A DNA stretch of 59,311 nucleotides from an uncultured Methanosarcinales archaeon (GTDB lineage: Archaea; Nanobdellota; Nanobdellia; Woesearchaeales; JAGWAF01): the NCBI GenBank assembly GCA_964597775.1, contig CAZQZJ010000003.1, forward strand, positions 1-59,311. The letters run 5' to 3'. Numbering within the stretch: the first letter of the stretch is position 1; every line of letters starts with the position of its first letter. Under the pieces are notes generated by a model, which was not told the DNA's origin, did not search any database, and saw only the letters and a program-made list of their open reading frames with translations. The position numbers and the translations under genes are program-made. Shown piece by piece: positions 3,757 through 59,311 of this stretch.

Positions 3757-3884
3757 GGGGTTGTGGTCTAGCTTGGTATGATTCACGGATGGGGTCCGCG
3801 AGATCGGGTGCACCCAAGGTCTTCTACCTTGTGGCACACAAACTCACGAAGTGAGTTTGTTGGGTTCAAATCCTCCCAACCCCA
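3757..3884 (+). tRNA. tRNA-Pro(GGG) with a 54-nt insertion in the T-stem (50/51 or 51/52)
   Basis: Acceptor GGGGTTG/CAACCCC+A73, D-arm GTCT-AGCTTGGTA-TGAT, anticodon arm CACGG-AT-GGG-GT-CCGCG, GGTTCAAATCC T-arm. Removing 3808-3861 gives a 74-nt cloverleaf. Confidence 0.85.
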
Positions 3885-4167: not shown

Positions 4168-4593
4168 TCACTTTTTAAGCACGCCCTCAACTGCTTTGAT
4201 AAAATCTTCCGCAGTCTCAATTACATTCTTGGCCTCACCGTAATCTATCCTGATCGGATCAAGACCATAATTGATGGCATGCCTATCAAGGCGAAGTGTA
4301 TTGAGCTCATTCAAAAACCTCAATTCAAGGCGATCGGCATATTGCTCCTTGACATACACGAACAGCGCAAAATGGCTCTTCTCAACATAACCGTCCCGGA
4401 ACAACAAAGACCTCGCGGCATGAAACATGCTTGCGTAGGCATTTGCGACTGCTTCCTCAGGGACTATCTTCAGGACCTTTTTAGCCACCTCAATCTTATG
4501 CCATGCCCTCTCGATCGATTTTGCCGCCTTCTCATTATCCGGGACGTCCCGCCTGAGAAGACCCTTTGCAACACATTGTTTGATGTCCATCAT
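4168..4593 (-). CDS. HEPN domain protein (putative toxin)
   Basis: AYASMFHAARSLL...KSH and Rx4HxxxY-like LRLDRHAINY; overlaps the upstream MNT gene. Confidence 0.85.
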   Translation of the reverse strand: MMDIKQCVAKGLLRRDVPDNEKAAKSIERAWHKIEVAKKVLKIVPEEAVANAYASMFHAARSLLFRDGYVEKSHFALFVYVKEQYADRLELRFLNELNTLRLDRHAINYGLDPIRIDYGEAKNVIETAEDFIKAVEGVLKK

Positions 4594-5138
4594 CTCACCA
4601 CAGGAATCTCTCCATGAATCGCGATGCCTCCAATGACCACGTTATCATAGAACGCCTTGTCGTCACGGGCCTTGACCTTCCATTGCGAAGGCGTGAATTG
4701 CATCCATGACACCTCACGATCCAAGACTTTCTCCGATTTTAGCCCGTTGAAGGAAACATTTGACCGGGAGATAATCACGATATCCACATCGCTGTCGGGC
4801 ATATCTGTTCCGCGCGCCACCGAGCCGAACAAAATGACTGACAATATCGCCGGGTTCTTTTTGAGGAGCTCCTCGATCAAACCAACCTCATGGATTCGCC
4901 CAAGAGACAGGGACGCTTTAAGATGCCGAACCAGAACATTATCTCTGTCCAGTTCACACAGGATCATCCTTCCAAGGGGCGTTCGCTTCACCAACCGATA
5001 ATCAGCCAAATAGTCGACTACGCGCTTAGCCGACGTGAGCCCTACACCCGCTCGCTTAGCTATCACGGTCATCGATTCGGGATGCTTTGTTTGCGACATG
5101 CTTTCAAAAACACGGAAAAGGGCATAAGATCGGATCAT
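4590..5138 (-). CDS. wHTH plus minimal nucleotidyltransferase (MNT) antitoxin
   Basis: SVILFGSVARG...DSDVDIVII MNT motif and N-terminal HTH (IAKRAGVGLTSAKRVV); ATG at 5138 with an SD-like GGTGTGGG. Confidence 0.88.
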   Translation of the reverse strand: MIRSYALFRVFESMSQTKHPESMTVIAKRAGVGLTSAKRVVDYLADYRLVKRTPLGRMILCELDRDNVLVRHLKASLSLGRIHEVGLIEELLKKNPAILSVILFGSVARGTDMPDSDVDIVIISRSNVSFNGLKSEKVLDREVSWMQFTPSQWKVKARDDKAFYDNVVIGGIAIHGEIPVVR

Positions 5139-5183
5139 ACACCCACACCAATGATCCTTCCTTAAATGGTTTTCCATTATTCA

Positions 5184-21807: not shown

Positions 21808-22587
21808 GTGGTTATGGTTTTAAAGAAACAACTTTTGTTTATTCTTCTCTGGCCAATAATCGCTGCATTACTATCTTTTTTGTTAAAAGCAAATACGTTG
21901 GCTTCAACATTGCTTTTCTTTGGAATTCCTGCAGTATATCTTTCTTTCCTAAAAAAAGACTGTGTGAGAATGGTGACAATATTTTCTGTAATATTTAGCA
22001 TTCCATTTGCTATTATTTTGGATTATGTGATGGAAATTACCGGCGGATGGTATATTCCGAAATCGGTTTTTGACCCTTTGCGGTTGTTTGGATACGTGTC
22101 TCTTGAACAGTTGATTTGGCTGTTCTTGTTCATGTACCTTGTTGGAATTTTTTACGAAGTGTTTTTTGACAAGAAGTGCACGCATAAATTGAATACGCCG
22201 AAACTCAAATATGCGATTTTTGGACTTGTGGTATTTTTTGGAATGTTCATAATTCTGCATATTACAAAACATGAGTTACTTAAAATTAACTTTTTCTACT
22301 TAAAATTCGGAATTATATTGGCACTTCTCCCATTTTTATTCGCACTTTTCCATTTTCCTGATCTTTACAGCGCCATGTTAATTATTGGTAGTTATTTCGC
22401 TTATTTATCATTTATTTACGAAATTACTGCGCTGTCATTGGGGCAGTGGACTTTTCCTGCAGTTGATCAGTTTATTGGATTTGTGAATGTTGGCGGCGTG
22501 ACTTTTCCTATTGAAGAGTTCTTGTTTTGGATTCTTTTAGGCTCACTTGCCACACTGACATATTACCGCTATTTTGGAGAGAAATAA
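21808..22587 (+). CDS. Tandem lycopene cyclase-domain membrane protein
   Basis: Two repeats of D/E-x4-G-x-W...G-x-P/S-x-E-E/Q (LDYVMEITGGWYIP...GYVSLEQ; YEITALSLGQWTFP...GVTFPIEE). Confidence 0.65.
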   Translation: MVMVLKKQLLFILLWPIIAALLSFLLKANTLASTLLFFGIPAVYLSFLKKDCVRMVTIFSVIFSIPFAIILDYVMEITGGWYIPKSVFDPLRLFGYVSLEQLIWLFLFMYLVGIFYEVFFDKKCTHKLNTPKLKYAIFGLVVFFGMFIILHITKHELLKINFFYLKFGIILALLPFLFALFHFPDLYSAMLIIGSYFAYLSFIYEITALSLGQWTFPAVDQFIGFVNVGGVTFPIEEFLFWILLGSLATLTYYRYFGEK

Positions 22588-22956
22588 AGAAATTGCCTGA
22601 AAACTGACTATCCCACCCTTCGCTTTGTTCACTCCGCAGCAAGCTGTGGTGTATTGGTCAGTTTTCTCGCTTCGCGACTGGCAATTTATATAGGAAATAA
22701 CCTTAATTTTAGGATATTTCACAAACGAAAGTAAGGTTATTTCCTAATAATCAAATCACTTTAATAATGGTAAAACATCTGATAATTAAAGTGATTTGAT
22801 ATAATTTCAGAATTGGGTTGTGCAACCGTAGCAGAGCTGTGTGGTATTGAACCCAATTCTGAAATAAAAAAAGTGCGCCTATTTTTGATTTGTCAAAGTC
22901 CACTAACATACTTGTTAAGCCCCAACCTATTGCAGAGGCACTGGCTTAACAAGTAC
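22583..22956. repeat. Palindromic module array Q-R1-R2-P-S-B
   Basis: Q 22583-22687, R1 22691-22746, R2 22750-22800, P 22804-22865, S-like 22866-22887 and B 22909-22956; each recurs elsewhere in the window. Confidence 0.92.
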
Positions 22957-23001
22957 CTACTAACGAAGAATTTAAATAACTCCTCATTACACTGTTAGAA
23001 C

Positions 23002-23715
23002 ATGAAGGTTCGAATAAAACGAGGAGAACAAGTACCACCAGCACCAACATACACACTACCACGAAACGAATCTAAAACCAAAACACAATCTATGATACAG
23101 CGCAAAACTATGGTACACAAACCAGAACCACCATATCTTACTATTGCATTTCTAATCCTAATCATCAGCAGCCTTTACTGGGCACAAACAAACCAGAACA
23201 CAGTAACACAACTCACATACACAGACCAAGAAATTCTACACAACCTTACCCAAACACACACTGACCTCACTGCAACAGACCTGAGTATTATCAACACTGA
23301 AAACCTACTTGTGACAAATGCATTATTCCACGTAACCCAATTCAACCCTGCAAAACGCATGGCACTTTACCGTGCACTAAGCAGCGGAAACAACAGCTAT
23401 GAATCCCGCATTCTTAAACACTGGCAAACAAACATATCAGACACTACACCAGTTACTGATGTACGCAATGACCTAATGACAAGCTTTTTATCAATCAGAC
23501 CAGAAGCAACACCAAAACAAGAAACCATTGCAAACCTTTTTGACTCACTTGATGACTTGCTACGCAAAAAAACCATGCTTTTAACCCTTACACAACAACT
23601 CCAAGAACAACATTATACCACCACAACAAAGATATTAGCATCTCAACGCATTGCAACCATTGCATGGATCATCTTTGCAATGATCACCTTACTCTTTCTT
23701 TTTCTAAAACGATAA
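23002..23715 (+). CDS. Two-TM membrane protein with a helical extracellular domain
   Basis: TM near aa 46-62, a C-terminal TM, and a Thr/Gln-rich helical middle. Confidence 0.7.
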   Translation: MKVRIKRGEQVPPAPTYTLPRNESKTKTQSMIQRKTMVHKPEPPYLTIAFLILIISSLYWAQTNQNTVTQLTYTDQEILHNLTQTHTDLTATDLSIINTENLLVTNALFHVTQFNPAKRMALYRALSSGNNSYESRILKHWQTNISDTTPVTDVRNDLMTSFLSIRPEATPKQETIANLFDSLDDLLRKKTMLLTLTQQLQEQHYTTTTKILASQRIATIAWIIFAMITLLFLFLKR

Positions 23716-28955: not shown

Positions 28956-29206
28956 TTCTTAAGAACATCAATATTCACAGCACCACAAATCCACTTCCCA
29001 GTCTTTGTATTAAAAAAAAACGGAACACCACCACAAAAACCCTTATCATAACCAGCCAAAAGCTTTGCATTCTTCTCATCATGCCACACCTCCAAACGAT
29101 CCACATTTACCCCCAACTCCTTCTCTAATTGATCAACTAAAGGATCCATCTCATGACAGTGAGTACATTCCCTTCCAGTAAACATGATAAGATAGGACTG
29201 TGCCAT
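28940..29206 (-). CDS. Thioredoxin-like protein
   Basis: CTHC active site and GGVP cis-Pro motif; first gene of the lipA-E1-E2 operon. Confidence 0.85.
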   Translation of the reverse strand: MAQSYLIMFTGRECTHCHEMDPLVDQLEKELGVNVDRLEVWHDEKNAKLLAGYDKGFCGGVPFFFNTKTGKWICGAVNIDVLKKWATG

Positions 29207-29228
29207 AACCTTTTTTTGAAAAAGATTG

Positions 29229-29238
29229 TATATAAATA
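29229..29238 (-). promoter_or_regulatory. TATA box of the trx-lipA-pdhABC operon
   Basis: TATTTATATA on the minus strand about 25-30 nt upstream of the ATG at 29206. Confidence 0.55.
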
Positions 29239-29292
29239 GTGCGTTTCCTCTGATTTGTAATAGCTACTCTCCAACTGATTTGTCAAGGATCG

Positions 29293-29436
29293 ATGTTAGC
29301 TTTCCTTTCTAAATTTATTGAGTTTGAGTACGTATTAAGCAGGGGTCAGTAGTCTGGTCAGTTGGTAGAGGGCATTCTTGCAGGACTTATCACCATTGGA
29401 CTAATCCTTATCAAACTGATTCATCGTACTTGTTAA
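29293..29436 (+). pseudogene. Possible small membrane-protein pseudogene
   Basis: MLAFLSKFIEFEYVLSRGQ*SGQLVEGILAGLITIGLILIKLIHRTC*: one internal TAG (29350-29352), a TM-like C-terminus, and a stop supplied by the adjacent repeat. Confidence 0.35.
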
Positions 29437-29685
29437 GACCCTATCTGTTGCAGAGGCGCTGACTTGTGTTTGCATTCGCAAACACACAACGCCGCTCGCA
29501 CCTCACAGAACTATTCAAAGAAACCCTCCTATCTGGAACCTCCTCGGGTTTGCGTAGAACTTCATAATAGTGCTCGCATCCTGGCACAATCGAACCCTTC
29601 GGCTTTCGCTGTGCACAAGGTCGAAATGCGACCTTGTTGCGTTCCACGCCAGCGCCTCTGCATAACACCTGGCTTAACAAGTACG
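29425..29685. mobile_element. 261-bp non-autonomous REPIN/MITE-like element built from two inverted module-B ends
   Basis: 13-bp terminal IR CGTACTTGTTAAG/CTTAACAAGTACG, subterminal IR TGCAGAGGCGCTG/CAGCGCCTCTGCA, flanking direct repeat ATTCAT (29419-29424, 29686-29691), and a GC-rich multi-hairpin core. Confidence 0.8.
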
Positions 29686-29747
29686 ATTCATACCAATGTT
29701 TAAAAACTTGCAGAGACTCTAACTAAAAACCGCACAGCGGTTTTTCC

Positions 29748-29820
29748 AGGCCTGTGGTCTAGCGGCTATGACGCCACCTTCACATGGTGGAGGTCAAGGG
29801 TTCAAATCCCTTCAGGCCTA
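29748..29820 (+). tRNA. tRNA-Val(CAC)
   Basis: AGGCCTG/CAGGCCT+A73, anticodon arm CCACC-TT-CAC-AT-GGTGG, T-arm AAGGG-TTCAAAT-CCCTT. Confidence 0.95.
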
Positions 29821-29898
29821 TTAACCTTGTTCAGAGTTGGTGGTATGTGATTTTGGTAACAAACAAACCTTTTTATAATCCTGACTATCCTCAAGATT

Positions 29899-30150
29899 GT
29901 GGACCAAAACCCTGAACCAAATATTCCAGATCCAAATACTGAAGAACAACGATTTGCCGTACTTATCCTACGCAGAATAGATAAACAAACCAAACAAACA
30001 CACCTCTCAATGCAAACACGAGGAGAAGGAATCACACTTGCAGAAGCAGCAATCATTCTTGAAGGTTGGTCAAAAAAAGTCAAAACTGAACTCCAACGAC
30101 CATTCACTGACAACCTTATCTTTGGAGGAAACGAAGCTAAAACAACCTAA
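29899..30150 (+). CDS. Hypothetical protein
   Basis: 83-aa ORF, GTG start, host-like codon style, convergent with the next gene. Confidence 0.55.
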   Translation: MDQNPEPNIPDPNTEEQRFAVLILRRIDKQTKQTHLSMQTRGEGITLAEAAIILEGWSKKVKTELQRPFTDNLIFGGNEAKTT

Positions 30151-30653
30151 ACATTCACAAGAACATCTGCTCTTAACCCTGCAACCATACCTAAACTACC
30201 AATACCACTTACACCAATTATTGTAATCACATCTAAATTTTTTGTAACACGCAACACCTCTTCAATCACACTTGCAAACATAAAATGAAGATCATCTTTA
30301 TCTAACTCTTCTTTATAAAAAAGCCTATCAAAACCAGAAATAACTAACACCTTACTTTTATATTTTTGCAACACTTGCTCAATCCTTATTATAAGATCAC
30401 GAAACTCAACTGCAGAAAGAGGACGAGCAAGCATAATCTTATGCATATCACAAATCAAAGGCTTGTGATAATACTGCCCAACAAACACAGGATTAAAGGT
30501 AGCAGCAGCATCAATAAAAGTCACCATACCAGAGGATTGTAATCTTAATGCCAATGAAATCAAGAGTGTTGAGGTTATTGCCACATCACCTTGCAACACA
30601 ACCACTTTACCAGAATTGCACTCAAAATCCTCACACCACAAATCCTGTCTCAT
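30147..30653 (-). CDS. Degenerate RadA/RecA-like (ImuA-like) protein
   Basis: VTFIDAAATFNP, MLARPLS and VLVISGFDRLFY resemble RecA-fold strands; no Walker A (LQGDVAITS). Confidence 0.6.
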   Translation of the reverse strand: MRQDLWCEDFECNSGKVVVLQGDVAITSTLLISLALRLQSSGMVTFIDAAATFNPVFVGQYYHKPLICDMHKIMLARPLSAVEFRDLIIRIEQVLQKYKSKVLVISGFDRLFYKEELDKDDLHFMFASVIEEVLRVTKNLDVITIIGVSGIGSLGMVAGLRADVLVNV

Positions 30654-30793
30654 ACCACTTTACTTTATTTTACTATTTAAATCCCGATTGGATCCTTGTC
30701 TAGTGTGCCTAGTCCGATTTATTTATAAACAACAAGAACAATCTCTTCTTGTTTAATATAATGATTCATAATTGAGAATAATATCTCTTCAAG

Positions 30794-32101
30794 ATGACTA
30801 CTATAGAACAACCACAACGACTTCAAAAAATCCTTTCAGGAGCAGGGATTGCATCACGCAGAAAATCTGAAGAATATATCACATCTGGAAGAATTACAGT
30901 CAATGGACAACGCATTCTCCAACTCGGCACCAAGGCACTACCTACTGATGATATCAAAGTTGACGGAGAAAAAATAAATATCCAACCTAAGATCTATATT
31001 GCACTTCACAAACCAAGCGGCTACCTTGTCACTACACCACCTTCCAAACGACGCACTGTCTTTGACCTTGTCCGCATACCACACAGACTCTTTTATGTTG
31101 GAAGACTTGACTATGAAACAGAAGGACTGCTCCTGCTTACCAACGACGGCGCATTTGCACAACAGATGTCTCATCCACGATTTGAAAAAGAAAAGACCTA
31201 CCTCGTCACTATCCAAGGCAGACTCTCCAGAGAGGATATTGAAACACTGGGACGAGGAATCAAGATCAAAAGCATCGGCCTTGAAACACAAAGCTCACCT
31301 TTAGTGCACATCTGGCCAGTCACAGTACGCGTCATATCTGAAGGAAAATACTCTACCTACGAATTCTCCATCCACGAAGGACGCAAAAACATCATCCGCC
31401 GAGTCATAGCACACTTTGGCAAAGAAGTAGATAAACTCCGACGCATACGCATCGGAAACCTAGGCCTTGCAGGAATCTCACCAGGCAAATGGCGATACCT
31501 TAGACCAGAAGAAGTTGAGGCCATGCTCAAACCGACAAAAATTAACAAACCAACACCACGACCAATCACCACATTTGTAGATGAAAAAGAATTCCGCAAA
31601 ACAGGATTTAGCAGATTTGGAAGCAAAGAACAAAGACGAACAAAATTTACTGAAACAGACAAAAGAGGAACACTACAATTTGAACGCAAGCAACCACATT
31701 CCTACACAGAAAAACAAAAATACAGAACACCATCACGAAACTTCCAACGCGAGGAACGAAATGAAGCGCCCTTACAACGATTTGATCGTGACACCCTACA
31801 ACGCAATGATAGCGACCGACCTGCACGACAGTTTGATCGTGCACCACTACGAGGTCGAGACAAAGGAAGATCAGAACCTCTATTCAAGAGACACACACGA
31901 GAATACAATAAAGAACGACCATTCCAAGAAAAAAAACCATTCAAATTCCGAAAACAAACTAATCCACAAACATCACCTTCTGAAGCACCTAGTTCCACAC
32001 CCAAAACATGGGGAAGTCGTGAAGACTACGCTGCATTCAAAGAACGCAGAGCACAACGCCCAGCTAAAAATCGATATTCTCGAAGAAGAAGAAATGCCTA
32101 G
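30794..32101 (+). CDS. RsuA/RluB-family pseudouridine synthase with S4 domain and long basic tail
   Basis: RLQKILSGAGIASRRKSEE (S4), LHKPSG, VGRLDYETEGLLLLTNDG and EGRKNIIRR; about 185-aa R/K/E-rich tail. Confidence 0.93.
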   Translation: MTTIEQPQRLQKILSGAGIASRRKSEEYITSGRITVNGQRILQLGTKALPTDDIKVDGEKINIQPKIYIALHKPSGYLVTTPPSKRRTVFDLVRIPHRLFYVGRLDYETEGLLLLTNDGAFAQQMSHPRFEKEKTYLVTIQGRLSREDIETLGRGIKIKSIGLETQSSPLVHIWPVTVRVISEGKYSTYEFSIHEGRKNIIRRVIAHFGKEVDKLRRIRIGNLGLAGISPGKWRYLRPEEVEAMLKPTKINKPTPRPITTFVDEKEFRKTGFSRFGSKEQRRTKFTETDKRGTLQFERKQPHSYTEKQKYRTPSRNFQREERNEAPLQRFDRDTLQRNDSDRPARQFDRAPLRGRDKGRSEPLFKRHTREYNKERPFQEKKPFKFRKQTNPQTSPSEAPSSTPKTWGSREDYAAFKERRAQRPAKNRYSRRRRNA

Positions 32102-32161: not shown

Positions 32162-32271
32162 TAGGAAATAACCTTAATTTTAGGATATTTCAAAAATGAA
32201 AGTAAGGTTATTTCCTAATAATCAAATCACTTTAATCTGGGAAAAATATCCTATAATTAAAGTGATTTGAT
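32162..32271. repeat. Palindromic modules R1-R2
   Basis: Arms TAGGAAATAACCTTA/TAAGGTTATTTCCTA and ATCAAATCACTTTAAT/ATTAAAGTGATTTGAT are identical to 22691-22800; cores differ slightly; between convergent genes. Confidence 0.92.
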
Positions 32272-32296: not shown

Positions 32297-33370
32297 TTAT
32301 AGTTTACACAAACTAATTGGCTTTCTTGTATCATCATAAAAACCAGATCTGCATTTGAGTTCAGGCTTACAATCAAAATCAGTGTTGCAACCAATGTTCT
32401 CTGATCTTGCTCTTTTTGGAGAACAAACCTTTGATTTATACAAATCATGGTATAAACAATCTATTTGCAAAGATTCTTTTTTCCCACCCCTTCCTAATAT
32501 TTCTTGAGCACACTCATCCTTTTTTTTACAGGATTCATTTAATCCACTAAACTCTGGTAAACAAATCCAAATTGGCTTATTTGTCTCATCATAAAAACCA
32601 GGCTTACAAACTAAAGACACAGCACAATCACTATTGGAGTTACATATAACATTCTTAGGCCGAGATGTCATAACTTGGCATACCTTTGATTTATAATCCT
32701 CATGGTACAAACATTTCAAACTAGGATCACACTCCACATTTCCACCACATACCTCATTTAACAATGCAAACTCTGGTTTGCATAACCCAATGGGCTTATT
32801 GGTCTCATCATAAAAACCAGACTTGCAGACTAAAGACACAGTGCAATCACTATTAGAATTACAGATAACATTGTTTAGACGCTTATTTCCAAAGGTACAA
32901 ATCTTGGTCTTAAAATCATCATGATATAAACAATCTGAGGATACAATCTTATTATCCTTATCAAGAAGCCTACACTCACTGCTTTTTATACAGCTTTGAT
33001 TAAAACCCTTAAACTCTGGCTGACATAAACTAATTTTCTTACCTTGATTGTCTCTAAATCCTTTAATACACCCAAGTCCTAACTGACAGTCACTATTTAA
33101 CGAGCATTCTAGACCAGAAACCCTATTATGCTTTGGAATACAAACGTTTCCTTGCTTATCTGAACTATACCCACATTCTGTAGATTCACACTCACTATCA
33201 CTCTGACAAGGCACTTCTAATGCATTATAAGAAGCTCTTAGATCGACATCACTCACTTCAAAACCAGTAATAGAAGTATGATATTTGGAAACTGTAAACA
33301 TAGAAAAGATACTGACAACGAGTACAAAAAATAATATAATAAGCTCTGAATGACTATTCATTACAATCAC
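32297..33370 (-). CDS. Membrane-anchored or secreted Cys-rich repeat protein
   Basis: N-terminal TM plus ITG motif, about 9 C-x5-C-x5-C-type units, and a 219-nt internal tandem repeat (32583 versus 32802). Confidence 0.85.
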   Translation of the reverse strand: MIVMNSHSELIILFFVLVVSIFSMFTVSKYHTSITGFEVSDVDLRASYNALEVPCQSDSECESTECGYSSDKQGNVCIPKHNRVSGLECSLNSDCQLGLGCIKGFRDNQGKKISLCQPEFKGFNQSCIKSSECRLLDKDNKIVSSDCLYHDDFKTKICTFGNKRLNNVICNSNSDCTVSLVCKSGFYDETNKPIGLCKPEFALLNEVCGGNVECDPSLKCLYHEDYKSKVCQVMTSRPKNVICNSNSDCAVSLVCKPGFYDETNKPIWICLPEFSGLNESCKKKDECAQEILGRGGKKESLQIDCLYHDLYKSKVCSPKRARSENIGCNTDFDCKPELKCRSGFYDDTRKPISLCKL

Positions 33371-33801
33371 CTTTTTTTATACACTTAATATTATTTGTTT
33401 ATATATCTTTCTTGATAAGAGATGCTAAACAAAATTCAAGAAACAACATGAGACATATCTTTACTGGTACTTGTTTAGCTCCTCTTAGAAGACAGGAGCG
33501 CTGGCTTATAAAATTGTAGTACGAATACCCACAGATTCAACAAAAATTTAAGTTTACACCCTTGTATAACAATTGATTCTATTTCTGTTTTGTTATTAGG
33601 CAATTCATTCAATAAATTATTGGAGAAACCACAAATAAATATTTCGCATTCTATAACAATATCTAGTATTAAGCGCAATAAAACTACGCTTAATGCATGT
33701 TCTGCGTAATTGAGAATTCGGCGCACGCATACCTTTACTATATTGAATCCATCAGGTTTAAATCGCAAAACTTATTTAGTAGCTTCATTAACCTATTTAC
33801 T

Positions 33802-35507: not shown

Positions 35508-35765
35508 TTAATAGACTCGTTCTCTAATATCAATTGCAAAGATGATAATGTGATGATTATCATTATCTACTCTGTATAGCACACGGTAATCTCCAATACG
35601 TATTCTGAACACACCATGCCTACCAACAATTGCCTTGGCATCATGAGGAACCGGTTGATCTTGGAGAAGTGTTTCTGTCTTGTCTACAATCCTTTGTGCA
35701 ATATGTTTATCTGCTTTCTTTAGAAATTTCTGAGGTTGAATATCATATTGAATTCCAAATTTCAT
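35508..35765 (-). CDS. relE: RelE/ParE-family toxin
   Basis: KFLKK...FRIRIGDYRVLYRVD...IDIRERVY. Confidence 0.9.
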   Translation of the reverse strand: MKFGIQYDIQPQKFLKKADKHIAQRIVDKTETLLQDQPVPHDAKAIVGRHGVFRIRIGDYRVLYRVDNDNHHIIIFAIDIRERVY

Positions 35766-35947
35766 ATCCCAAACTCATTCCTCAGTGATTCGCTGGAGAC
35801 AAGAAGATTTTCTTTTTCGTGTTTATAGCTTGCATCAAGTAATTCGCTTTCTTCTGCTGCCAAGAACATATCCCTGTCTGGTATCTCTTCTCTTATTGTT
35901 TTTAGTTCTCTTCTTATAAGTACTAATTCCTGTTTGATATCTTCCAT
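35762..35947 (-). CDS. Cognate antitoxin (acidic, about 61 aa)
   Basis: Small acidic ORF overlapping the toxin start by 4 nt; ATG at 35947 or 35959. Confidence 0.8.
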   Translation of the reverse strand: MEDIKQELVLIRRELKTIREEIPDRDMFLAAEESELLDASYKHEKENLLVSSESLRNEFGI

Positions 35948-36611
35948 TTCGGTGCCCATACAGTTTGTAACAACTCCAGCTTTAAAAACATATCGGCAAG
36001 CTTGTGAACTCTTCGCCAATTTTTGTTTCACAAAAACCATTGTACTTTGACTCGGTCACTTCGTGACGAATATAACCGGAGAAGCCGTCCCACAATTCTT
36101 CCCTAATAACCCCATTTCCAAAAAAAAAGATAATTTAGGGGAATTTAGCAGTATTTCGTCTGCATCATTCTCCGTAATACATGAGAATCCTTTTCCTATC
36201 TGTTCCTGAATATATCTTTTATGCCAAATTGTTAATTCTCATCTCTTGGCATTGCCCCTCAATAATTGATTTCAAAACTTCTTTAAATTAAATGGTTTGC
36301 GTGAGAAAATTGGAAACACAGCTTCCAAATTCTTGGAACAGAGTTCCAAGAAACCCAGATTTAGCTGGATTTATTTTAGGAGTATGTCATTCTTGCTTGT
36401 GCAAAAATGGGACGTCGCTCGCACTTATCTTTATTGTATTATCTTTTTCTTCAGACGATCTTGCAGTGTCATCTGACGCAATTTCAGATTATGCTCTAAA
36501 TGATTAATAATCACATTTGTATTTAGTGTACGAAGATCAAGCAGATCACCAGCAAGCCTAAACTCTGGCTTTAACCTTTGTTCTTGTGACTTCACTTTTA
36601 ATCTGTTCATT

Positions 36612-46330: not shown

Positions 46331-46595
46331 AAAAATGGGAGCGCCCCTTTTAAACCACCTTCTGCCTTGCTTTATTTCAGAATTGGGTTCAATACCCCAC
46401 AGCTCTGCTACTGTTGCACAATCCGATTCTGAAATTAGAAATTGTTGGTCGCGAAGCGAGAAAACTGACCAATATCCCACAGCTTGCTGCGGAGTGAGCG
46501 AAGCGAAGGGTGGGATGGTCAGTTTTCAGGCAATTTCTTTATTCTTGGTACAAAAACTTAAGTTGGCCAGAGGCCGACATTAAACGTTTTTTTAT
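46331..46595. repeat. Palindromic module array S-P-Q-A (P and Q inverted relative to the 22.6 kb array)
   Basis: By manual alignment P (46374-46435) differs from 22804-22865 at 4 of 62 positions and Q (46439-46543) from 22583-22687 at 8 of about 105; A at 46548-46595. Confidence 0.92.
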
Positions 46596-46670: not shown

Positions 46671-48515
46671 ATGATATACCAACCACTACCAACCACACTT
46701 AGATCATTATACCAATCAACTGCAAAGGCTATTGTAGGTCTTACCCTTATTCAGTCCATTGCATTTGCTGGTAATATACCCCAAGCCAACCGCGTTGAGG
46801 TAGCTGATTACTGGAATAGCAACAAAGTCCAACAAATACTTATTGACACCTACAAAAAAAAGAACCCTAAAAACTATACAAGCATTGTAGAATCCATTAA
46901 CAATGCAGCAAACAGCCTACGAGTCAAGATACGAACAACCAATGGAAAAACTGTTGAATTCAAATTACCAAACGAAAATACCTACAGACCAATTCTTACA
47001 GATCAAGAGGTAGTAGGAGGTATTGATAATATTGTTCAAGAATCAGATTTTGAAGAAAAGAATCTCCTAGCTATTCCAACACCAGAGCCATCTCCTACAA
47101 AACCTAGTCTTGAAGAACCCAGACCAGAACAAACAAATGCCACCTATCCACAGATAACCCCAGAACAATTTACAAGCAGACTTGAAGAGATCAGCAAAGA
47201 ACTAATCAATTCCCAAAGACACAAAGCAAATGCTAGACCATACCAAGTGATTCTTACTGATGCTAAGACGTTATGGTACAGCTTTTTAAGAACAGCATAC
47301 CCCTATGTTGCAGAACAAGACATCCCCTTATTTTACCAATATATAATCAAGAGCCCTTATTTTGTCAATCGTGAAGAAAAGCTCCTTCCAACATATAATA
47401 AAGTGGTAGTTTCCGAGCTTGCAAAATTACTAAACCATACCCAAGTAATACAGCAGTATGCACCAAAATTCTCAGAAAAGATACGAGAACAGCTAACACT
47501 AGAAATAAAGATCCTTGAAGAACACAAAAAGAGAATCATACAAAAAGGAAACTGGGCAGAGAATGTCACTGACAAATTCATATTTACAGAGGAGATCAGA
47601 GATTCGCATGTAGAAAATATCAAAAAGGTCGTGATTCGGGCGGAAAGCTACCTACCACGAGATAGCGATGGCAACATCATACAAAAAGACAAACTGGACA
47701 GAAATGGATGGGTTTACTACCATGCCAACAGCGCAATCCGAACCAACAACCCATTTGAAAATGATTTTACACACGCAGAATTTGGCACTACCATGATCAT
47801 GCACGCATTCCAATACAGAAACGAATTTAGCATGGATGCGTGGATCAACCCAGACACATTTGCATGGTACATGGACATGCACCAACGCATAGGCCATGTA
47901 CTTGATGACATGTTTGACCATGTCCAAAAACACACTGACTTACGCGAATATCTCCAAACTTGCCTACAACCAGAACACCTCACTATAAACACTGACTATG
48001 ACGGCAAACCACACTACAAATTTGGATTTACCACTACCAAAGAATATGTTGATGGTTTTGCAGCTGCTCGCAAACATATGGATGATATCTACCAACAAAA
48101 CACATCACTAGCTGGATTTTTGGAAAGATCCTTTCTCAAACTCCCTATACATGTACTTGATCGTTCCTTTATTAATCTCGGAAAAATCGGTGAAGACATA
48201 GGAGAAGGAAAAATCGCACGACTTGCCTCAACAGATGTATGGAGACTACTTAGCAACTACTTTTTTTTTAAGAACTATGAAGCCATGCTACATGGAAACA
48301 CAGACGCCCTTGCATCACACATTCTTTTCGGAGCTGGAGAAACATCACCAAGAGATGCTGCAGAAGGATTATACAATAATTTGACATCATTTGCACGAGA
48401 CAGTGTTGACATGAAAGGACGGCTTGCAGCTGGACTTAGCACCTATTTTAACACAGACTATTTAATCAATGGAGTTCCTGCCTCATATCGGTTTTTACAT
48501 GATTCAATACGATAA
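46671..48515 (+). CDS. Secreted hypothetical protein: shared N-domain, Pro linker and a ~450-aa unknown domain
   Basis: Signal peptide-like N-terminus (...QSIAFA); N-domain near-identical to that of 49784..50557; His-rich helical C-domain. Confidence 0.85.
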   Translation: MIYQPLPTTLRSLYQSTAKAIVGLTLIQSIAFAGNIPQANRVEVADYWNSNKVQQILIDTYKKKNPKNYTSIVESINNAANSLRVKIRTTNGKTVEFKLPNENTYRPILTDQEVVGGIDNIVQESDFEEKNLLAIPTPEPSPTKPSLEEPRPEQTNATYPQITPEQFTSRLEEISKELINSQRHKANARPYQVILTDAKTLWYSFLRTAYPYVAEQDIPLFYQYIIKSPYFVNREEKLLPTYNKVVVSELAKLLNHTQVIQQYAPKFSEKIREQLTLEIKILEEHKKRIIQKGNWAENVTDKFIFTEEIRDSHVENIKKVVIRAESYLPRDSDGNIIQKDKLDRNGWVYYHANSAIRTNNPFENDFTHAEFGTTMIMHAFQYRNEFSMDAWINPDTFAWYMDMHQRIGHVLDDMFDHVQKHTDLREYLQTCLQPEHLTINTDYDGKPHYKFGFTTTKEYVDGFAAARKHMDDIYQQNTSLAGFLERSFLKLPIHVLDRSFINLGKIGEDIGEGKIARLASTDVWRLLSNYFFFKNYEAMLHGNTDALASHILFGAGETSPRDAAEGLYNNLTSFARDSVDMKGRLAAGLSTYFNTDYLINGVPASYRFLHDSIR

Positions 48516-48517
48516 AA

Positions 48518-48566
48518 GTACTTGTTAAGACCCTATCGGTTGCAGAGGCGCTGGCTTAACAAGTAC
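48518..48566. repeat. Stand-alone module B (49 bp)
   Basis: GTACTTGTTAAG-ACCCTATCGGTTGCAGAGGCGCTGG-CTTAACAAGTAC, 2 nt after a stop codon. Confidence 0.92.
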
Positions 48567-48601
48567 CAATAGAACTAATCTTTTTAAAGTTCGAAATCTT
48601 T

Positions 48602-49699
48602 ATGCTAATCATGACTTATTCCAACCTTTCCCCATTACGACCATACATACGACAAATAAGATTACACCTTAAACAAAGATATCTTGGTTTTATTGGAGGC
48701 TCGCTTGGAGAAGATAGCGAACGCAAGGTGCTAACAAATGGAATTATTCGTGATGCCATGATCTACCTAAAATCACAGAATACCCTTATCACAACAAATA
48801 ATTTACAAAAGATCTTATTTGACACACAATGTAGATTAAATTATGAATTTCTTGAAAGCCACAGCCCTACCTATATCTTATTTGATAAGTCGGCTCAACA
48901 CGATGCTATCAAAGCACGCAATATATTTATTAAACAGAATATACAGAATGATACTGCAATATTTACTGAGACATCTACACAAGAACAAGATCCTATTTAT
49001 CAAGTTGATAATAGCATCAACATAACACCAAACAAACAAGAAGCTCAGAAAACACAAACACAACAACAAGAAGGAATTAGTACAGACCATTCTTCACAAC
49101 CTAATAACACACAACAAGCAAGATATACACTAAACCTTTCCCCACCACCTAATGAAAACGAGAGATTTCACAAACTCTACAAAAAATTAGATTATTTGAT
49201 TCTTGGAGGCATCGTAGGTATTGCTGCTGGCGCAATAAGCGTATACACCCTATCCCAGCTAGGAAAGGTTACACATTACGACCTACGCAGCAGATTGCAT
49301 GAAGTGCGCAAAGAAATAGTAGGATCAAAAAATACACTAGATGCTAGTAAGCAAGTAGAACTTGTAAAAAAGATTGATACTATCACAAATCTTGTTCTGA
49401 AATCTGCAACAAAAACTACATCACTTGAAACACAATTAAGAAAAGTTGAAAAACAACTTGGAGATATTCAGCATGTTGTTACTCAAGACAAAACAACAAA
49501 AGAATTACAAACCCTACAACAACGTCTTAATAATATATATGCCCAATTATCTGACCTTAAAAAACAAAAGAATACTGAGAAAACACCAGTTTCTATAATA
49601 CATTCTTCTGAGACAAAAAAAAGACAAGATACTACAAACAAACCTGTTGACTCAACTCTTCTAAAATTACAGAAAGCACTCAAGACTGCAGGCTTCTAG
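48602..49699 (+). CDS. Single-TM coiled-coil protein
   Basis: Gln-rich linker, TM YLILGGIVGIAAGAISVY and C-terminal coiled coil. Confidence 0.75.
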   Translation: MLIMTYSNLSPLRPYIRQIRLHLKQRYLGFIGGSLGEDSERKVLTNGIIRDAMIYLKSQNTLITTNNLQKILFDTQCRLNYEFLESHSPTYILFDKSAQHDAIKARNIFIKQNIQNDTAIFTETSTQEQDPIYQVDNSINITPNKQEAQKTQTQQQEGISTDHSSQPNNTQQARYTLNLSPPPNENERFHKLYKKLDYLILGGIVGIAAGAISVYTLSQLGKVTHYDLRSRLHEVRKEIVGSKNTLDASKQVELVKKIDTITNLVLKSATKTTSLETQLRKVEKQLGDIQHVVTQDKTTKELQTLQQRLNNIYAQLSDLKKQKNTEKTPVSIIHSSETKKRQDTTNKPVDSTLLKLQKALKTAGF

Positions 49700-49783: not shown

Positions 49784-50557
49784 ATGAAATATACAACATC
49801 AGCACAAGACTTGTTTACATCATTATACAAAACAACTGCTAAATGTATAGCAGGAATTACCCTACTCCAATCAATTGCATTTGCAGACACTATACCACAA
49901 ACATATCGAGTTGAAGTTGCTGATTATTGGAACAGCAACAAAGTCCAACAAATACTTATTGACACCTACAAAAAAAAGGATCCTAAAAACTATACTGACC
50001 TTGTAGAATCCATTAACAATGCAGCAAACAGCCTACGAGTCAAGATACGAACAACCAATGGAAAAACTGTTGAATTCAAATTACCAAACGAAAATACCTA
50101 CAGACCAATTCTTACAGATCAAGATGTAGTAGGAGGTATTGATAATATTGTTCAAGAATTAGATTCTGAAGAAGAAACCACAGGATTTGAATACAAACCA
50201 TTGCCACTTCCTTCTCCAGAACCTACGCCAAGCCCTGCACCACAGACTCCTCCTTCTTATTCTGATTCACGTCCTAAGATTCCTTTGGATGTTCCTGGTC
50301 CAGAATATGACAGCAGATTAAATAACACAGAAAAAAGTCCAGAAGAACACCGTACACGTATCAACAATGCAGTTCCTATTATTCTAGGAGGTACAATCTT
50401 ATACCTTATTTTGAGAGGAAGAGGTAGTAGCAGAAGCAACCAAGCTCCAGCAAGGGGCAGTATTGGAAGCGGTTCTGGAGGAGGCGGAGGAAGTGGTAGT
50501 GGAACAAGCCCTGGATTTAACCCAAATAATCACATTGGCCCTGGAGACACTAGATAG
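49784..50557 (+). CDS. Secreted or anchored protein: shared N-domain, Pro linker, TM and Gly-rich tail
   Basis: Same N-domain as 46671..48515; TM AVPIILGGTILYLIL; GSGGGGGSG tail. Confidence 0.85.
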   Translation: MKYTTSAQDLFTSLYKTTAKCIAGITLLQSIAFADTIPQTYRVEVADYWNSNKVQQILIDTYKKKDPKNYTDLVESINNAANSLRVKIRTTNGKTVEFKLPNENTYRPILTDQDVVGGIDNIVQELDSEEETTGFEYKPLPLPSPEPTPSPAPQTPPSYSDSRPKIPLDVPGPEYDSRLNNTEKSPEEHRTRINNAVPIILGGTILYLILRGRGSSRSNQAPARGSIGSGSGGGGGSGSGTSPGFNPNNHIGPGDTR

Positions 50558-57776: not shown

Positions 57777-57932
57777 GGGGCTGTAGTATAACTTGGCTAG
57801 AATAGGTGGCTCCAGTCATGGAGCGATGAGCTGCAGTAATCTGTAGCAATGAAATAAACCTATGGTCTGTTGAAGCCTTTGCTTCAAGGAAGAGACCACC
57901 GGATCAGGGTTCAAATCCCTGCAGCCCCACCA
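57777..57932 (+). tRNA. tRNA-Trp(CCA) with a canonical 37/38 intron (57816-57894) and encoded CCA
   Basis: GGGGCTG/CAGCCCC-A-CCA; anticodon stem GGTGG/CCACC; BHB with central helix CTCC/GAAG (one mismatch) and intron stem CATGGAGC/GCTTCAAG; TTTATAAA about 30 nt upstream. Confidence 0.95.
57816..57894 (+). ncRNA. Intron-encoded box C/D-like guide RNA (putative Cm34/Cm39)
   Basis: TGGAGC-g-ATGA and TGGTCT-g-TTGA: antisense elements place C34 and C39 opposite the fifth nt upstream of D-like boxes. Confidence 0.55.
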
Positions 57933-59224: not shown

Positions 59225-59226
59225 AT

Positions 59227-59311
59227 TATAAAAAATGCTTAAGTAGGCCAGAGACCGACATTAAGCGTTTTTGTACCAAGAATAAAGAAATTGCCTAAAA
59301 ACTTACCATCC
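59227..59311. repeat. Palindromic module array A-Q (truncated by the window end)
   Basis: TATAAAAAATGCTTAA-GTAGGCCAGAGACCGACA-TTAAGCGTTTTTGTAC followed by CAAGAATAAAGAAATTGCC..., the Q start as in the reverse complement of 46519-46547. Confidence 0.9.

Follow-up and report, generated by a model that had tools for sequence, protein, structure and literature searches.

A hairpin-forming element upstream of a tRNA-Val gene in an uncultured groundwater archaeon is probably a long member of a small MITE-like family found at a constant distance from predicted promoters

What is the 261-bp structured sequence that lies 62 nt upstream of the tRNA-Val(CAC) gene at 29748-29820 in a contig of an uncultured groundwater archaeon? 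An initial annotation of this DNA described it as REPIN-like, with two inverted modules around a structured core that could be cargo or a non-coding RNA. We analysed the whole stretch of 59,311 nucleotides that surrounds it (contig CAZQZJ010000003.1, hereafter the window), in which two intron-bearing tRNAs and archaeal marker genes identify the host as an archaeon. Every item listed in that annotation was found at its position and the 261-bp feature is confirmed as real: this non-coding sequence is repeated, forms hairpins and carries both terminal and subterminal inverted repeats along with a target duplication. The whole element is spanned at 100 % identity by an independent assembly contig (L017, ERZ1292641) and is therefore not an assembly artefact. 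We place its ends at 29426-29684, a length of 259 bp (261 bp by the earlier boundaries), and call this long element D. Its parts and its downstream neighbour are as follows.

29418-29425, no strand: left 8-bp target duplication, GATTCATC, which contains ATTCAT and matches the right copy at 7 of 8 positions
29426-29437, plus strand: left terminal inverted repeat T, GTACTTGTTAAG, an exact 12-mer that recurs at the ends of the short copies
29438-29448, plus strand: spacer a, ACCCTATCTGT, in which the left arm varies
29449-29461, plus strand: left subterminal repeat U, TGCAGAGGCGCTG, of which each short element has a single copy
29462-29671, plus strand: segment R, 210 bp, present in D and missing from the short copies, holding the core, U' and most of spacer b
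29650-29662, plus strand: right subterminal repeat U', CAGCGCCTCTGCA, complementary to U at every position
29673-29684, plus strand: right terminal inverted repeat T', CTTAACAAGTAC, which pairs with T
29685-29692, no strand: right 8-bp target duplication, GATTCATA, matching the left copy at 7 of 8 positions
29748-29820, plus strand: tRNA-Val(CAC), outside the element (ARAGORN; 65.5 bits with the Rfam tRNA model)

Both pairs of 13-bp repeats reported earlier are perfect. The terminal pair, CGTACTTGTTAAG (29425-29437) against CTTAACAAGTACG (29673-29685), grows to 15 perfect base pairs once the flanking AT is counted (inverted-repeat pair I17), and the subterminal pair consists of U and U'. The spacers between them, a in the left arm and b in the right, are unrelated in sequence. 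T is itself nearly palindromic (CTTGTTAAG). Within the window the 12-mer occurs five times exactly and once with a single mismatch, all at the six ends of three elements, and allowing up to two mismatches gives 19 matches where 6.4 are expected. D contains only chance ORFs, none longer than 79 aa. We looked up 13 ORFs by exact match, some overlapping D or next to it and others overlapping one of the short copies (22908-22956), and found none of them; those over D are absent from a collection of 15 billion proteins. A protein search with the six translated frames of D, joined, gave no relative among the candidates listed, which were capped at 8000.

Two 49-bp palindromes that share the ends of D exist elsewhere in the window, as had been noted. 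We call these short copies S. They had been taken as singlets corresponding to one module of D, a view of which one part holds, namely that short relatives with the same ends exist. The other part does not, since each S is not a half-element but a complete hairpin with both termini: it aligns to 37 nt of the left arm of D and 16 nt of its right end, and equals D minus 210 internal bp (29462-29671). A profile search added a degenerate fourth copy, so that three intact copies and one degenerate copy are present within about 66 kb (the window and adjoining sequence).

22900-22964, plus strand: short copy S (22908-22956) with 8-bp duplications CCACTAAC and CTACTAAC, which match at 7 of 8 positions
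48510-48574, plus strand: short copy S (48518-48566) with 8-bp duplications CGATAAAA and CAATAGAA, which match at 6 of 8 positions
33467-33522, plus strand: degenerate fourth S-like copy (nhmmer E = 0.019)

In the copy at 48518-48566 the terminal repeats are perfect over 12-13 bp, as in D. The copy at 22908-22956 has lost the outermost pair and still keeps a perfect stem of 13 bp (TACTTGTTAAGCC/GGCTTAACAAGTA). The two S copies differ at 8 positions, 6 of which fall within spacer a, and U is identical to that of D in one copy and matches at 12 of 13 positions in the other. This pattern of constraint, with T and U conserved and the spacers free to vary, speaks for a transposon.

The ATTCAT flanks of D had been read as a 6-bp target duplication. 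They are present (29419-29424 and 29686-29691), and the duplication itself is better read as 8 bp because the same geometry is seen in all three intact copies, where 8-bp direct repeats directly abut GTAC...GTAC with matches of 7/8, 7/8 and 6/8. Empirically, a flank match of at least 7/8 arises by chance with a probability of about 1e-3 and one of at least 6/8 with about 1e-2, for a joint probability of about 1e-8. Because these repeats match within each site and differ from one site to the next, they bear the signature of insertion and not that of a binding site that has evolved. The 8-bp duplications mark cut-and-paste insertion and point to a staggered-cut (DDE-type) reaction rather than to single-strand transposition of the RAYT/HUH type.

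Is the element a conserved feature of this locus? The 168-aa neighbour gene has only two homologues, with 49 % and 35 % amino-acid identity. The genome with the 49 % homologue shares the neighbourhood, with tRNA-Val and homologues of the 83-aa and 168-aa genes, and has only about 62 bp upstream of its tRNA-Val and no element there; it is too distant for a base-by-base comparison of the empty site. The element is thus not conserved at the locus, at least in this distant relative.

We conclude that D and S probably constitute a small family of non-autonomous DNA transposons of the MITE-like kind, with D as the long member and S as the short ones. Four observations lead to this: the elements have their ends in common, 8-bp duplications flank them at three independent sites, they lack coding capacity, and the relative's tRNA-Val locus is without the element. 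MITEs as defined in PMC11602168 and PMC10969869 are about 50-800 bp long, with terminal inverted repeats no shorter than about 10-15 bp, target duplications of 2-10 bp and no coding capacity. D (259 bp) and S (49 bp) have terminal inverted repeats of 12-13 bp and duplications of 8 bp at three sites, and D is non-coding. Each end would be bipartite, with 10-11 nt of free spacer between the 12-bp T (GTACTTGTTAAG) and the 13-bp U. These bipartite ends would be recognised and bound by a transposase whose gene lies outside the element, in another part of the genome; the enzyme would cut the target with an 8-bp stagger, whose repair would leave the 8-bp duplication. We infer a DDE transposase working in trans, with T and U as its putative binding sites.

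Other hairpin modules of this genome are insertional as well, since the E+F hairpin unit (22691-22800) splits a junction of modules A and G that is intact at two other loci. MITE-dense DPANN genomes have already been documented (PMC11602168). Like the prokaryotic MITEs of Sulfolobus (SM), Neisseria (Correia) and Coxiella (QMITE2), which are 50-800 bp long with terminal inverted repeats of at least 10 bp, the D and S elements are non-coding and intergenic, have short target duplications and a very stable predicted hairpin, come in long and short variants and cluster or nest with other small repeats. They differ from them in having no sequence relative in the collections searched and no identified partner insertion sequence, in their bipartite ends (T, spacer and U), and in the identical position and orientation of the three intact copies relative to a predicted archaeal TATA box. 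Base composition also speaks against a MITE: D is G+C-rich (51 % against 38 %), while prokaryotic MITEs are typically A+T-rich (PMC10969869). Other points on that side are the several well-formed hairpins predicted in the core, for which a purely selfish spacer would have no need, and the degenerate fourth copy, which has neither duplication (its flanks match at 3 of 8 positions) nor a TATA-like octamer 14 nt downstream. To these we add that Pfam annotation and scans found no transposase, integrase or Y1/RAYT gene in the window or the 7 kb beyond it, nor did the same sequence hold an autonomous partner with the termini of D. A new MITE family, of the ordinary selfish kind save for its spacing to promoters, is nevertheless the most likely explanation, and it would add to the small parasitic DNA recorded from uncultured groundwater archaea, whose genomes are tiny and poorly known.

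How, within such a family, are D and S related? Segment R is bounded by a 7-bp direct repeat, CTGACTT (29459-29465) and CTGGCTT (29669-29675), matching at 6 of 7 positions, and S carries a single uninterrupted CTGGCTT. On the transposon explanation, D and S are related by one event between these 7-bp repeats. Either the segment 29462-29671 was deleted from D to give S, or R, as a second element, was inserted into the loop of an S copy to give D. In the latter case D would be a composite of a 49-bp S and a nested mobile element (about 29466-29668) placed at CTGGCTT in the loop, and not the ancestral full-length form. This is a possibility within the transposon explanation, and one that in our judgement falls only a little short of an even chance. 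Besides the direct repeat that abuts R, it draws on the ends of R itself, GTGTTTGCA (29466-29474) and TGCATAACAC (29659-29668), which form a 9/10 inverted repeat with one gap; on the size of 49-62 bp, which is usual for hairpin modules in this genome; and on the fact that such modules do insert beside one another here. In addition, Logan contigs end at the edges of R, two stopping at 29492 and one at 29640, exactly 30 nt inside its boundaries, which fits k = 31 if R has a second context and suggests that the core also occurs elsewhere. The same ends may instead reflect another copy of D with point differences at 29462 and 29670, or low coverage (3-7x). A nested R would moreover carry a perfect 13-15-nt complement of U by coincidence or shared ancestry, whereas this complement is expected by design if D is ancestral and S arose by deletion between short repeats at the hairpin base. 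Neither the window nor the additional 7 kb contains a second copy of R, and no second doublet was retrieved from them or from the collections searched.

The family is unusual in where its copies lie. Each of the three intact elements, all in the same orientation, is followed by the right duplication, then 6 nt, then a TATA-like octamer; the TATA boxes given here are sequence predictions.

22971-22978, plus strand: TATA-like octamer TTTAAATA, 14 nt after the S copy at 22908-22956 and ending 23 nt before the ATG at 23002
29693-29706, plus strand: BRE-like hexamer CCAATG with TATA-like octamer TTTAAAAA, the predicted promoter of tRNA-Val
48581-48588, plus strand: TATA-like octamer TTTTTAAA, 14 nt after the S copy at 48518-48566 and ending 22 nt before the ATG at 48611

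In all three cases a TTTW5 octamer begins precisely 14 nt beyond the element, against a background of 0.85 % per intergenic position, and in both protein-coding cases it ends 22-23 nt before the start codon. The same arrangement of TATA box and start codon is found at about 17 promoters in the window. The spacing statistics are weakened because the gap between stop codon and promoter at 48518-48566 was so short that selection by itself would restrict an insertion to about a dozen positions. A promoter carried by the element itself was considered and rejected: the 14 nt between element and TATA box differ among the copies, and the relative without the element has the conserved tRNA-Val motif as well, as GCCAACATTTAAAAAC ending 25 nt before the tRNA gene.

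Given the fixed orientation and the right duplication, which in three of three copies ends 6 nt before the predicted TATA box and just short of the BRE position, we propose that insertion takes place at the upstream edge of promoters. It is possible, judging from three sequences, that insertion is directed to the upstream edge of archaeal promoters or is tolerated only there. That the family was inserted by a mechanism that reads archaeal promoter architecture is a more specific idea, which we put forward tentatively and regard as rather doubtful. Such a mechanism would make an 8-bp staggered cut in fixed orientation, directly on the upstream side of the BRE and at 6 nt from the TATA box, with targeting perhaps through TBP/TFB-bound or bent DNA or through an extended asymmetric target; the left flanks of D and of the S copy at 22908-22956 also agree at 8 of 10 positions. 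Yeast Ty3/Ty1 insert at Pol III genes, and Correia elements immediately upstream of genes. By analogy, D and S may share with these a fixed short distance upstream of the transcription start, beside a binding site for the TBP/TFIIB family, and one of the three targets of D and S is a tRNA gene. The systems compared are eukaryotic retrotransposons or bacterial MITEs, while D and S amount to three copies at predicted promoters. If the mechanism were true, it would be an archaeal DNA-transposon counterpart of the integration of yeast Ty3/Ty1 guided by Pol III factors, and the promoters entered would acquire a stable hairpin at about -45 that could insulate them from upstream transcription. Should the spacing hold genome-wide, the family would be a natural and simple case in which to study how archaeal promoters are located at their upstream edge by a transposase, and it could show the effects of inserted hairpins on leaderless transcription units that lie a few bases apart.

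Constant spacing to a promoter is also what a host site would show. The palindromes could be cis-acting sites rather than mobile DNA, kept by selection at the promoters of a small regulon, either as an upstream site for a transcription factor or as a hairpin insulator or terminator just upstream of BRE/TATA. That all three intact copies lie at the same distance from the predicted TATA box and point the same way would suit such a site, as would a conserved T and U around a variable spacer and the near-palindromic form of T. So would the S copy at 48518-48566, which begins 3 nt after a stop codon (its left duplication holds the stop of the ORF at 46671-48515) and whose hairpin could end the upstream transcript. 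On the other side are the 8-bp repeats that match within a site and differ between sites, as left by insertion, the half-sites that in D stand 235 bp apart, and the relative's tRNA-Val promoter, which has no such site. The downstream genes, tRNA-Val and two genes for proteins without a Pfam domain, have no evident functional link either. We consider a host origin of this kind unlikely. A mobile origin does not preclude a regulatory effect acquired later.

The structured core raises the question of whether D is an RNA gene. A GC-rich core of about 190 nt with at least four hairpins had been described; we find 188 nt (29462-29649) with 51 % G+C against 38 % for the window, and a predicted fold in which two or three weaker hairpins accompany two perfect ones of 9 bp.

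29465-29486, plus strand: perfect 9-bp hairpin, TGTGTTTGC-ATTC-GCAAACACA, in the minimum-free-energy folds
29545-29614, plus strand: two imperfect predicted hairpins (29545-29583 and 29584-29614) of the whole-element fold, weakly supported
29615-29637, plus strand: perfect 9-bp hairpin, ACAAGGTCG-AAATG-CGACCTTGT, in the predicted folds

The two perfect hairpins are unrelated to each other in sequence, and the imperfect pair is kept only partly in the centroid structure of the core folded alone. Folding of the whole element gives z = -9.6 on the plus strand and -8.3 on the minus strand, compared with only -3.6 and -2.75 for the core alone; most of the fold signal therefore comes from the two terminal helices. 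Rfam 15 at gathering thresholds, run on the whole window, placed nothing over 29419-29691 and thus no known housekeeping RNA at D. At E <= 10 the regions 29100-30000 and 22450-23050 gave only tRNAs and sub-threshold hairpin noise, the one match over D being a 14-bit, microRNA-like chance match to a single hairpin. Inspection by eye of both strands found no convincing match to conserved regions I and V of RNase P or to the motifs of SRP helix 8. In an archaeal bulge-helix-bulge motif, a helix of 4 bp at the foot of the stem lies between two bulges of 3 nt each. The predicted fold joins its two 13-bp helices differently, through a bulge of 1 nt, 2 bp and an internal loop of 8 x 8, and on inspection of that geometry we rejected an rRNA-type processing stem or an intron of this type.

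If the core of D were the gene of a structured non-coding RNA, belonging to the host or carried as cargo, the S copies would be by-products, and the helices T:T' and U:U' would act as a processing or stabilising stem. In A+T-rich archaea, RNA genes are marked by G+C-rich islands, and the 51 % of the core in a 38 % genome approaches the 56 % of the tRNA. The two perfect hairpins and the significant fold (core and whole element alike) are in keeping with such a gene, and a small hairpin followed by T5 (29730-29745), 45 nt downstream, could terminate a plus-strand transcript. Yet D lies between two divergent promoters and has no TATA-like box 25-30 nt upstream of either end on the plus strand, the helices are joined by a loop that in the predicted fold forms no bulge-helix-bulge motif, and Rfam gives no match even at E <= 10. 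The relative's tRNA-Val locus does without the element, and the flanking 8-bp duplication indicates that the whole unit arrived by insertion. An RNA gene is, on balance, improbable. A G+C-rich, strongly folding island beside a tRNA gene does not warrant annotation as an RNA gene without expression data.

Least of all do we expect D to belong to a REP/REPIN system, in which the singlets would be decayed halves of a doublet moved as a single-stranded hairpin by a RAYT (Y1/HUH) enzyme; this now seems highly improbable. There is a likeness to the short extragenic palindromes and longer two-armed hairpins of bacterial REP/REPIN-RAYT systems, in that two inverted arms surround a spacer and the short palindromes share the arm sequence, and many other short palindromic modules form mosaics of several families in this genome, reminiscent of bacterial BIMEs. 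The singlet-doublet analogy of the initial annotation nonetheless fails, with both termini in each singlet and 8-bp duplications at all three sites. A REPIN doublet has two inverted singlets around a short spacer; the arms of D are 188 nt apart and its length of 259 bp exceeds that of typical REPINs. No Y1_Tnp/RAYT gene is among the genes of the window, the host is archaeal, and our literature search found no report of REPINs in archaea. The termini read GTAC and the flanks share no conserved tetranucleotide, so that the GTAG or CGTC tag given for REP/REPIN in PMC3733652 is absent. The PATEs derived from IS200/IS605 are likewise small and non-coding with hairpins near both ends, but they lack terminal inverted repeats and target duplications and insert by a fixed tetra- or pentanucleotide, and ends of this type were rejected for D, where repeats and duplications are present and the perfect hairpins are unrelated in sequence.

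The public genome, metagenome, virus, plasmid and phage collections searched yielded no copy of the element. The pattern ACTTGTTAAG-N9-12-TGCAGAGGC gave only chance matches in unrelated bacteria when run against GTDB representative genomes, JGI metagenomes and IMG/VR, a T...T' pattern had no match with the structure of the element in IMG/VR, and blastn against plasmid and phage collections found no match. A 614-aa protein has no database homologue but itself. Replicate assemblies of the same population extend the window by 7 kb on the left and 174 bp on the right with no further copy. Contigs of other assemblies break at the hairpin modules, and five of them end inside D, which suggests that further copies exist; the D and S family explains why the assemblies of this organism fragment at these points.

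The element at 29426-29684 (D) and its two 49-bp short copies (S: s22909 and s48518) most likely represent a new family within a known class, the small non-autonomous DNA transposons or MITEs: their size and terminal inverted repeats agree with those of MITEs, they are flanked by a target duplication and they have no coding capacity. Atypical for a MITE, however, are the G+C richness, the well-structured core and the constant promoter-proximal position. D is not a mis-assembly, because a contig of the independent assembly ERZ1292641, from another replicate, covers 29144-31148 at 100 % identity.

Members of the family, and parts and neighbour of D
29425-29437: left terminal repeat of D (T), CGTACTTGTTAAG
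29449-29461: left subterminal repeat of D (U), TGCAGAGGCGCTG
29465-29486: perfect 9-bp hairpin in the core of D (predicted fold)
29615-29637: perfect 9-bp hairpin in the core of D (predicted fold)
29650-29662: right subterminal repeat of D (U'), CAGCGCCTCTGCA
29673-29685: right terminal repeat of D (T'), CTTAACAAGTACG
29748-29820: tRNA-Val(CAC)
22908-22956: short copy s22909
48518-48566: short copy s48518
33467-33522: degenerate fourth copy (nhmmer, E = 0.019)

The anatomy proposed in the initial annotation holds: the terminal inverted repeat is perfect (15 bp if the flanking AT, which also pairs, is counted), a second, subterminal pair lies inside it, and tRNA-Val is the neighbour. The core (29462-29649), described as G+C-rich and structured, is 188 nt long with 51 % G+C against 38 % for the window, and several hairpins are predicted, the weaker ones lying between the two perfect 9-bp hairpins. 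The whole unit folds at -103.9 kcal/mol on the + strand (z = -9.6) and -117 kcal/mol on the - strand (z = -8.3), whereas for the core by itself z is -3.6 and -2.75; most of the folding signal is supplied by the two 13-bp terminal helices. On inspection, the predicted fold of D shows no bulge-helix-bulge stem, and the element matches no Rfam family. Expression of the core is possible. A 24-codon hydrophobic ORF (MVEGILAGLITIGLILIKLIHRTC, 29362-29436, +) enters the left end of D and has its stop codon within the terminal repeat; if the element were absent, its translation would close with ...IKLIHTNV. This ORF is unlikely to be a gene.

With boundaries set at GTAC...GTAC, each of the three intact copies is flanked by 8-nt direct repeats.

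Flanking 8-mers and downstream TATA-like octamers of the intact copies
D: left GATTCATC, right GATTCATA, match 7/8; octamer TTTAAAAA at 29699
s22909: left CCACTAAC, right CTACTAAC, match 7/8; octamer TTTAAATA at 22971
s48518: left CGATAAAA, right CAATAGAA, match 6/8; octamer TTTTTAAA at 48581

ATTCAT does stand on both sides of D as first reported, but the 6-bp duplication is better read as 8 bp with a 7/8 match. Elsewhere in the window, equally spaced 8-mers match in at least 7/8 at 0.03-0.15 % and in at least 6/8 at 0.4-1.2 % of positions, and the joint chance of the three matches is about 1e-8. The repeats agree within each site and vary from site to site, which is what a staggered cut followed by repair would leave behind. 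It is mainly because of these duplications that we file the family as a transposon. Single-strand mobilisation (RAYT or IS200-type) is rejected because it leaves no duplication, and the presence of duplications likewise excludes an IS200/IS605-like element for the D/S family. The degenerate copy has no flanking repeat, its 8-mers matching at 3/8.

The 12-mer GTACTTGTTAAG occurs five times exactly and once with one mismatch, and all six occurrences are ends of D, s22909 and s48518. The end sequence of D had correctly been placed in the 49-bp copies near 22909 and 48518. Alignment, blastn and nhmmer give these copies the layout T, spacer a (the left T-U gap), U and T'. They had been taken for singlets, parallel to REP/REPIN; since S carries both the first 36-37 nt and the last 16 nt of D, it is D minus 29462-29671 and not a single arm. 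The REPIN identity itself fails at every point examined. Among the 49 positions of the two short copies there are 8 differences, and the 11-nt spacer a accounts for six of these; spacers a and b (left and right) of D are unrelated. As the spacers vary while T and U are kept, each end is bipartite, with T and U conserved and the 10-11 nt between them free.

The 210-bp segment found in D and missing from S (R, 29462-29671) has CTGACTT (29459-29465) at its left boundary and CTGGCTT (29669-29675) at its right; S shows a single unbroken CTGGCTT at the corresponding point. In other assemblies of this population five contigs terminate within D, two of them at 29492 and the others at 29526, 29557 and 29640. 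Logan contigs are built with k = 31, all 31-mers being distinct within an accession (PMC12424806), so a contig that enters a repeat from unique sequence is expected to end 30 nt beyond the edge of the repeat. On the left side two Logan contigs, each from a different run, end at 29492 (29462 + 30), and on the right side one ends at 29640 (29670 - 30); the boundaries obtained, 29462 and 29670, are the edges of the segment without counterpart in S. Most simply, both ends of R have an identical counterpart elsewhere in these metagenomes, whose context departs from that of D at 29462 and 29670; this evidence is suggestive and short of proof because coverage is low (3-7x). This second context could be a free-standing R or another doublet with slightly different arms. 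Contigs break at other repeat modules too (46529 and 22787), which fits repeat-driven fragmentation.

Two accounts of the origin of D are about equally probable. D may be the full-length form and S the product of a single deletion, between the 7-bp repeats that lie at the foot of the long hairpin, which later multiplied; on this account the perfect complementarity of U and U' is explained. Alternatively S, which at 49 bp resembles the other 51-62-bp hairpin modules of this genome, may be the basic unit and D a copy of S with a nested insertion. Nested insertion accounts for the 7-bp direct repeat as a duplication, for the 9/10 inverted-repeat ends of R itself (GTGTTTGCA/TGCATAACAC) and for the Logan contig ends, but must assume that R inherited its U motif from a common ancestor.

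About 17 genes have a TATA-like octamer whose end lies 20-26 nt (mostly 20-24) ahead of their start codon (for example 29229-29236 (-), 22971-22978, 48581-48588 and 30674-30681 (-)). Because this gap has no space for a leader, the architecture indicates predominantly leaderless transcripts. The fixed spacing between element and promoter is a new observation, made on n = 3 copies and predicted promoters: in each intact element the last base is followed by the 8-bp duplication, 6 nt and the octamer, in identical orientation relative to the downstream gene. TTTW5 octamers begin at only 0.85 % of intergenic positions. Those of s22909 and s48518 end 23 and 22 nt before the ATG at 23002 and 48611, in agreement with the general promoter architecture of the window. 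D and s22909 also resemble each other in their left flanks (TTATCAAACT vs TTGTCAAAGT, 8/10). The degenerate copy breaks the spacing rule.

A promoter carried by the element is rejected, as the intervening 14 nt differ among copies and a relative without the element has GCCAACATTTAAAAAC, corresponding to the tRNA-Val motif ACCAATGTTTAAAAAC, 25 nt upstream of its own tRNA-Val. At s48518 the original gap between stop codon and TATA extends only about 9 nt beyond the duplicated 8-mer, so short that selection alone would confine a viable insertion. With this constraint allowed for, the chance estimate for the spacing is about 1e-3. Promoter-directed insertion would raise the interest of the element if the rest of the genome confirms it.

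The 168-aa neighbour gene has only two homologues among 5.8 billion proteins searched. Around the closer homologue (49 % identity, GCA_964359785.1) the genes stand in the same order (168-aa gene, 83-aa-gene homologue, tRNA-Val(CAC)), with no element in the about 62 bp upstream of tRNA-Val and no hairpin of at least 11 pairs and a loop of at most 60 nt in 12.6 kb. Pattern scans of GTDB representative genomes, JGI metagenomes and IMG/VR returned chance matches only, and plasmid and phage collections no match. Given this absence from the relative and the collections, D is not a conserved housekeeping RNA of the tRNA-Val locus, and the family is, as far as can be seen, lineage-specific.

Two further observations concern the tRNA-Val upstream region. 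A small hairpin (AAAAA-CCGC-ACA-GCGG-TTTTT, 29725-29745) between the predicted TATA box and the tRNA lengthens the leader by about 16 nt compared with the relative (L019), and looks like a bidirectional terminator inside the leader. A contig of another assembly (L016, Logan ERR3858132) is identical to the window from 32186 down to 29743, diverges at 29742 and continues with 25 unrelated bases (AACTTCTTTCATTAGATCATAACTC) beginning 5 nt upstream of tRNA-Val, which suggests a strain or structural variant of this region in the same community.

Anticodon-loop insertions in two tRNA genes mark the host as an archaeon, and so do genes of the window, among them an STT3/AglB-type oligosaccharyltransferase, an ELP3 homologue and a geranylgeranyl-reductase-like flavoprotein. 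The sample was 0.2-um-filtered groundwater from the Hainich wells, and we infer an affiliation with DPANN. The tRNA gene at 57777-57929 (+; Rfam tRNA 38.8 bits, missed by ARAGORN) has an 83-nt anticodon-loop insertion; with CTCCAGT in its anticodon region, the gene may encode tRNA-Trp(CCA). Motifs GATGAG and AATGAAA within the insertion are reminiscent of the box C/D RNA of euryarchaeal tRNA-Trp introns. A candidate second intron-bearing tRNA (3757-3884, +) has ~57 extra nt in the anticodon arm and scores 21.7 bits, under the Rfam gathering score of 29; no tool annotates it. Neither precomputed Pfam nor our own scans identified a transposase, an integrase or a Y1 gene anywhere in the window.

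Short palindromic modules of at least five more families form intergenic mosaics reminiscent of bacterial BIMEs (22588-22907; 46374-46592; 59226-59311 and the tail of contig L022; 32162-32271; 10504-10551). High MITE densities are on record for DPANN archaea (PMC11602168). Five hairpin modules, A, E, F, G and S, follow one another in the intergenic region 22588-23001.

Palindromic modules other than S
A: 22590-22687, about 98 bp
E: 22691-22746, 56 bp
F: 22750-22800, 51 bp
G: 22804-22865, 62 bp
C: terminator-like, with A-run and T-run flanks

Modules A, G and C recur together at 46374-46592 and at 59226-59311, running on into L022, and E+F recurs at 32162-32271. The loops of A, G, S and C have in common a GCAGAG..CTG-like or CCAGAGGCC-like motif. 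The A-G junction is CTA alone at two loci (46435-46440 and the L022 tail); at 22688-22803 a 113-bp E+F unit flanked by ATA...ATA lies between A and G. Read as filled and empty sites, these junctions show that such modules insert, and they suggest a TA or NTA duplication for the E+F family.

The window also holds two ORFs of 614 and 257 aa without Pfam domain, whose N-terminal 300 nt (46699-46998 and 49815-50114) are 88 % identical; a search of 5.8 billion proteins gave no homologue of the 614-aa protein. In a cysteine-rich 357-aa ORF (32297-33370, -) a unit of about 73-85 aa is present three times in tandem (repeat families D2, D7 and D9). Candidate toxin-antitoxin modules are a HEPN/nucleotidyltransferase pair (4168-5177, -) and a ParE-toxin-family gene around 35762-36040 (4614-5146 of contig L015).
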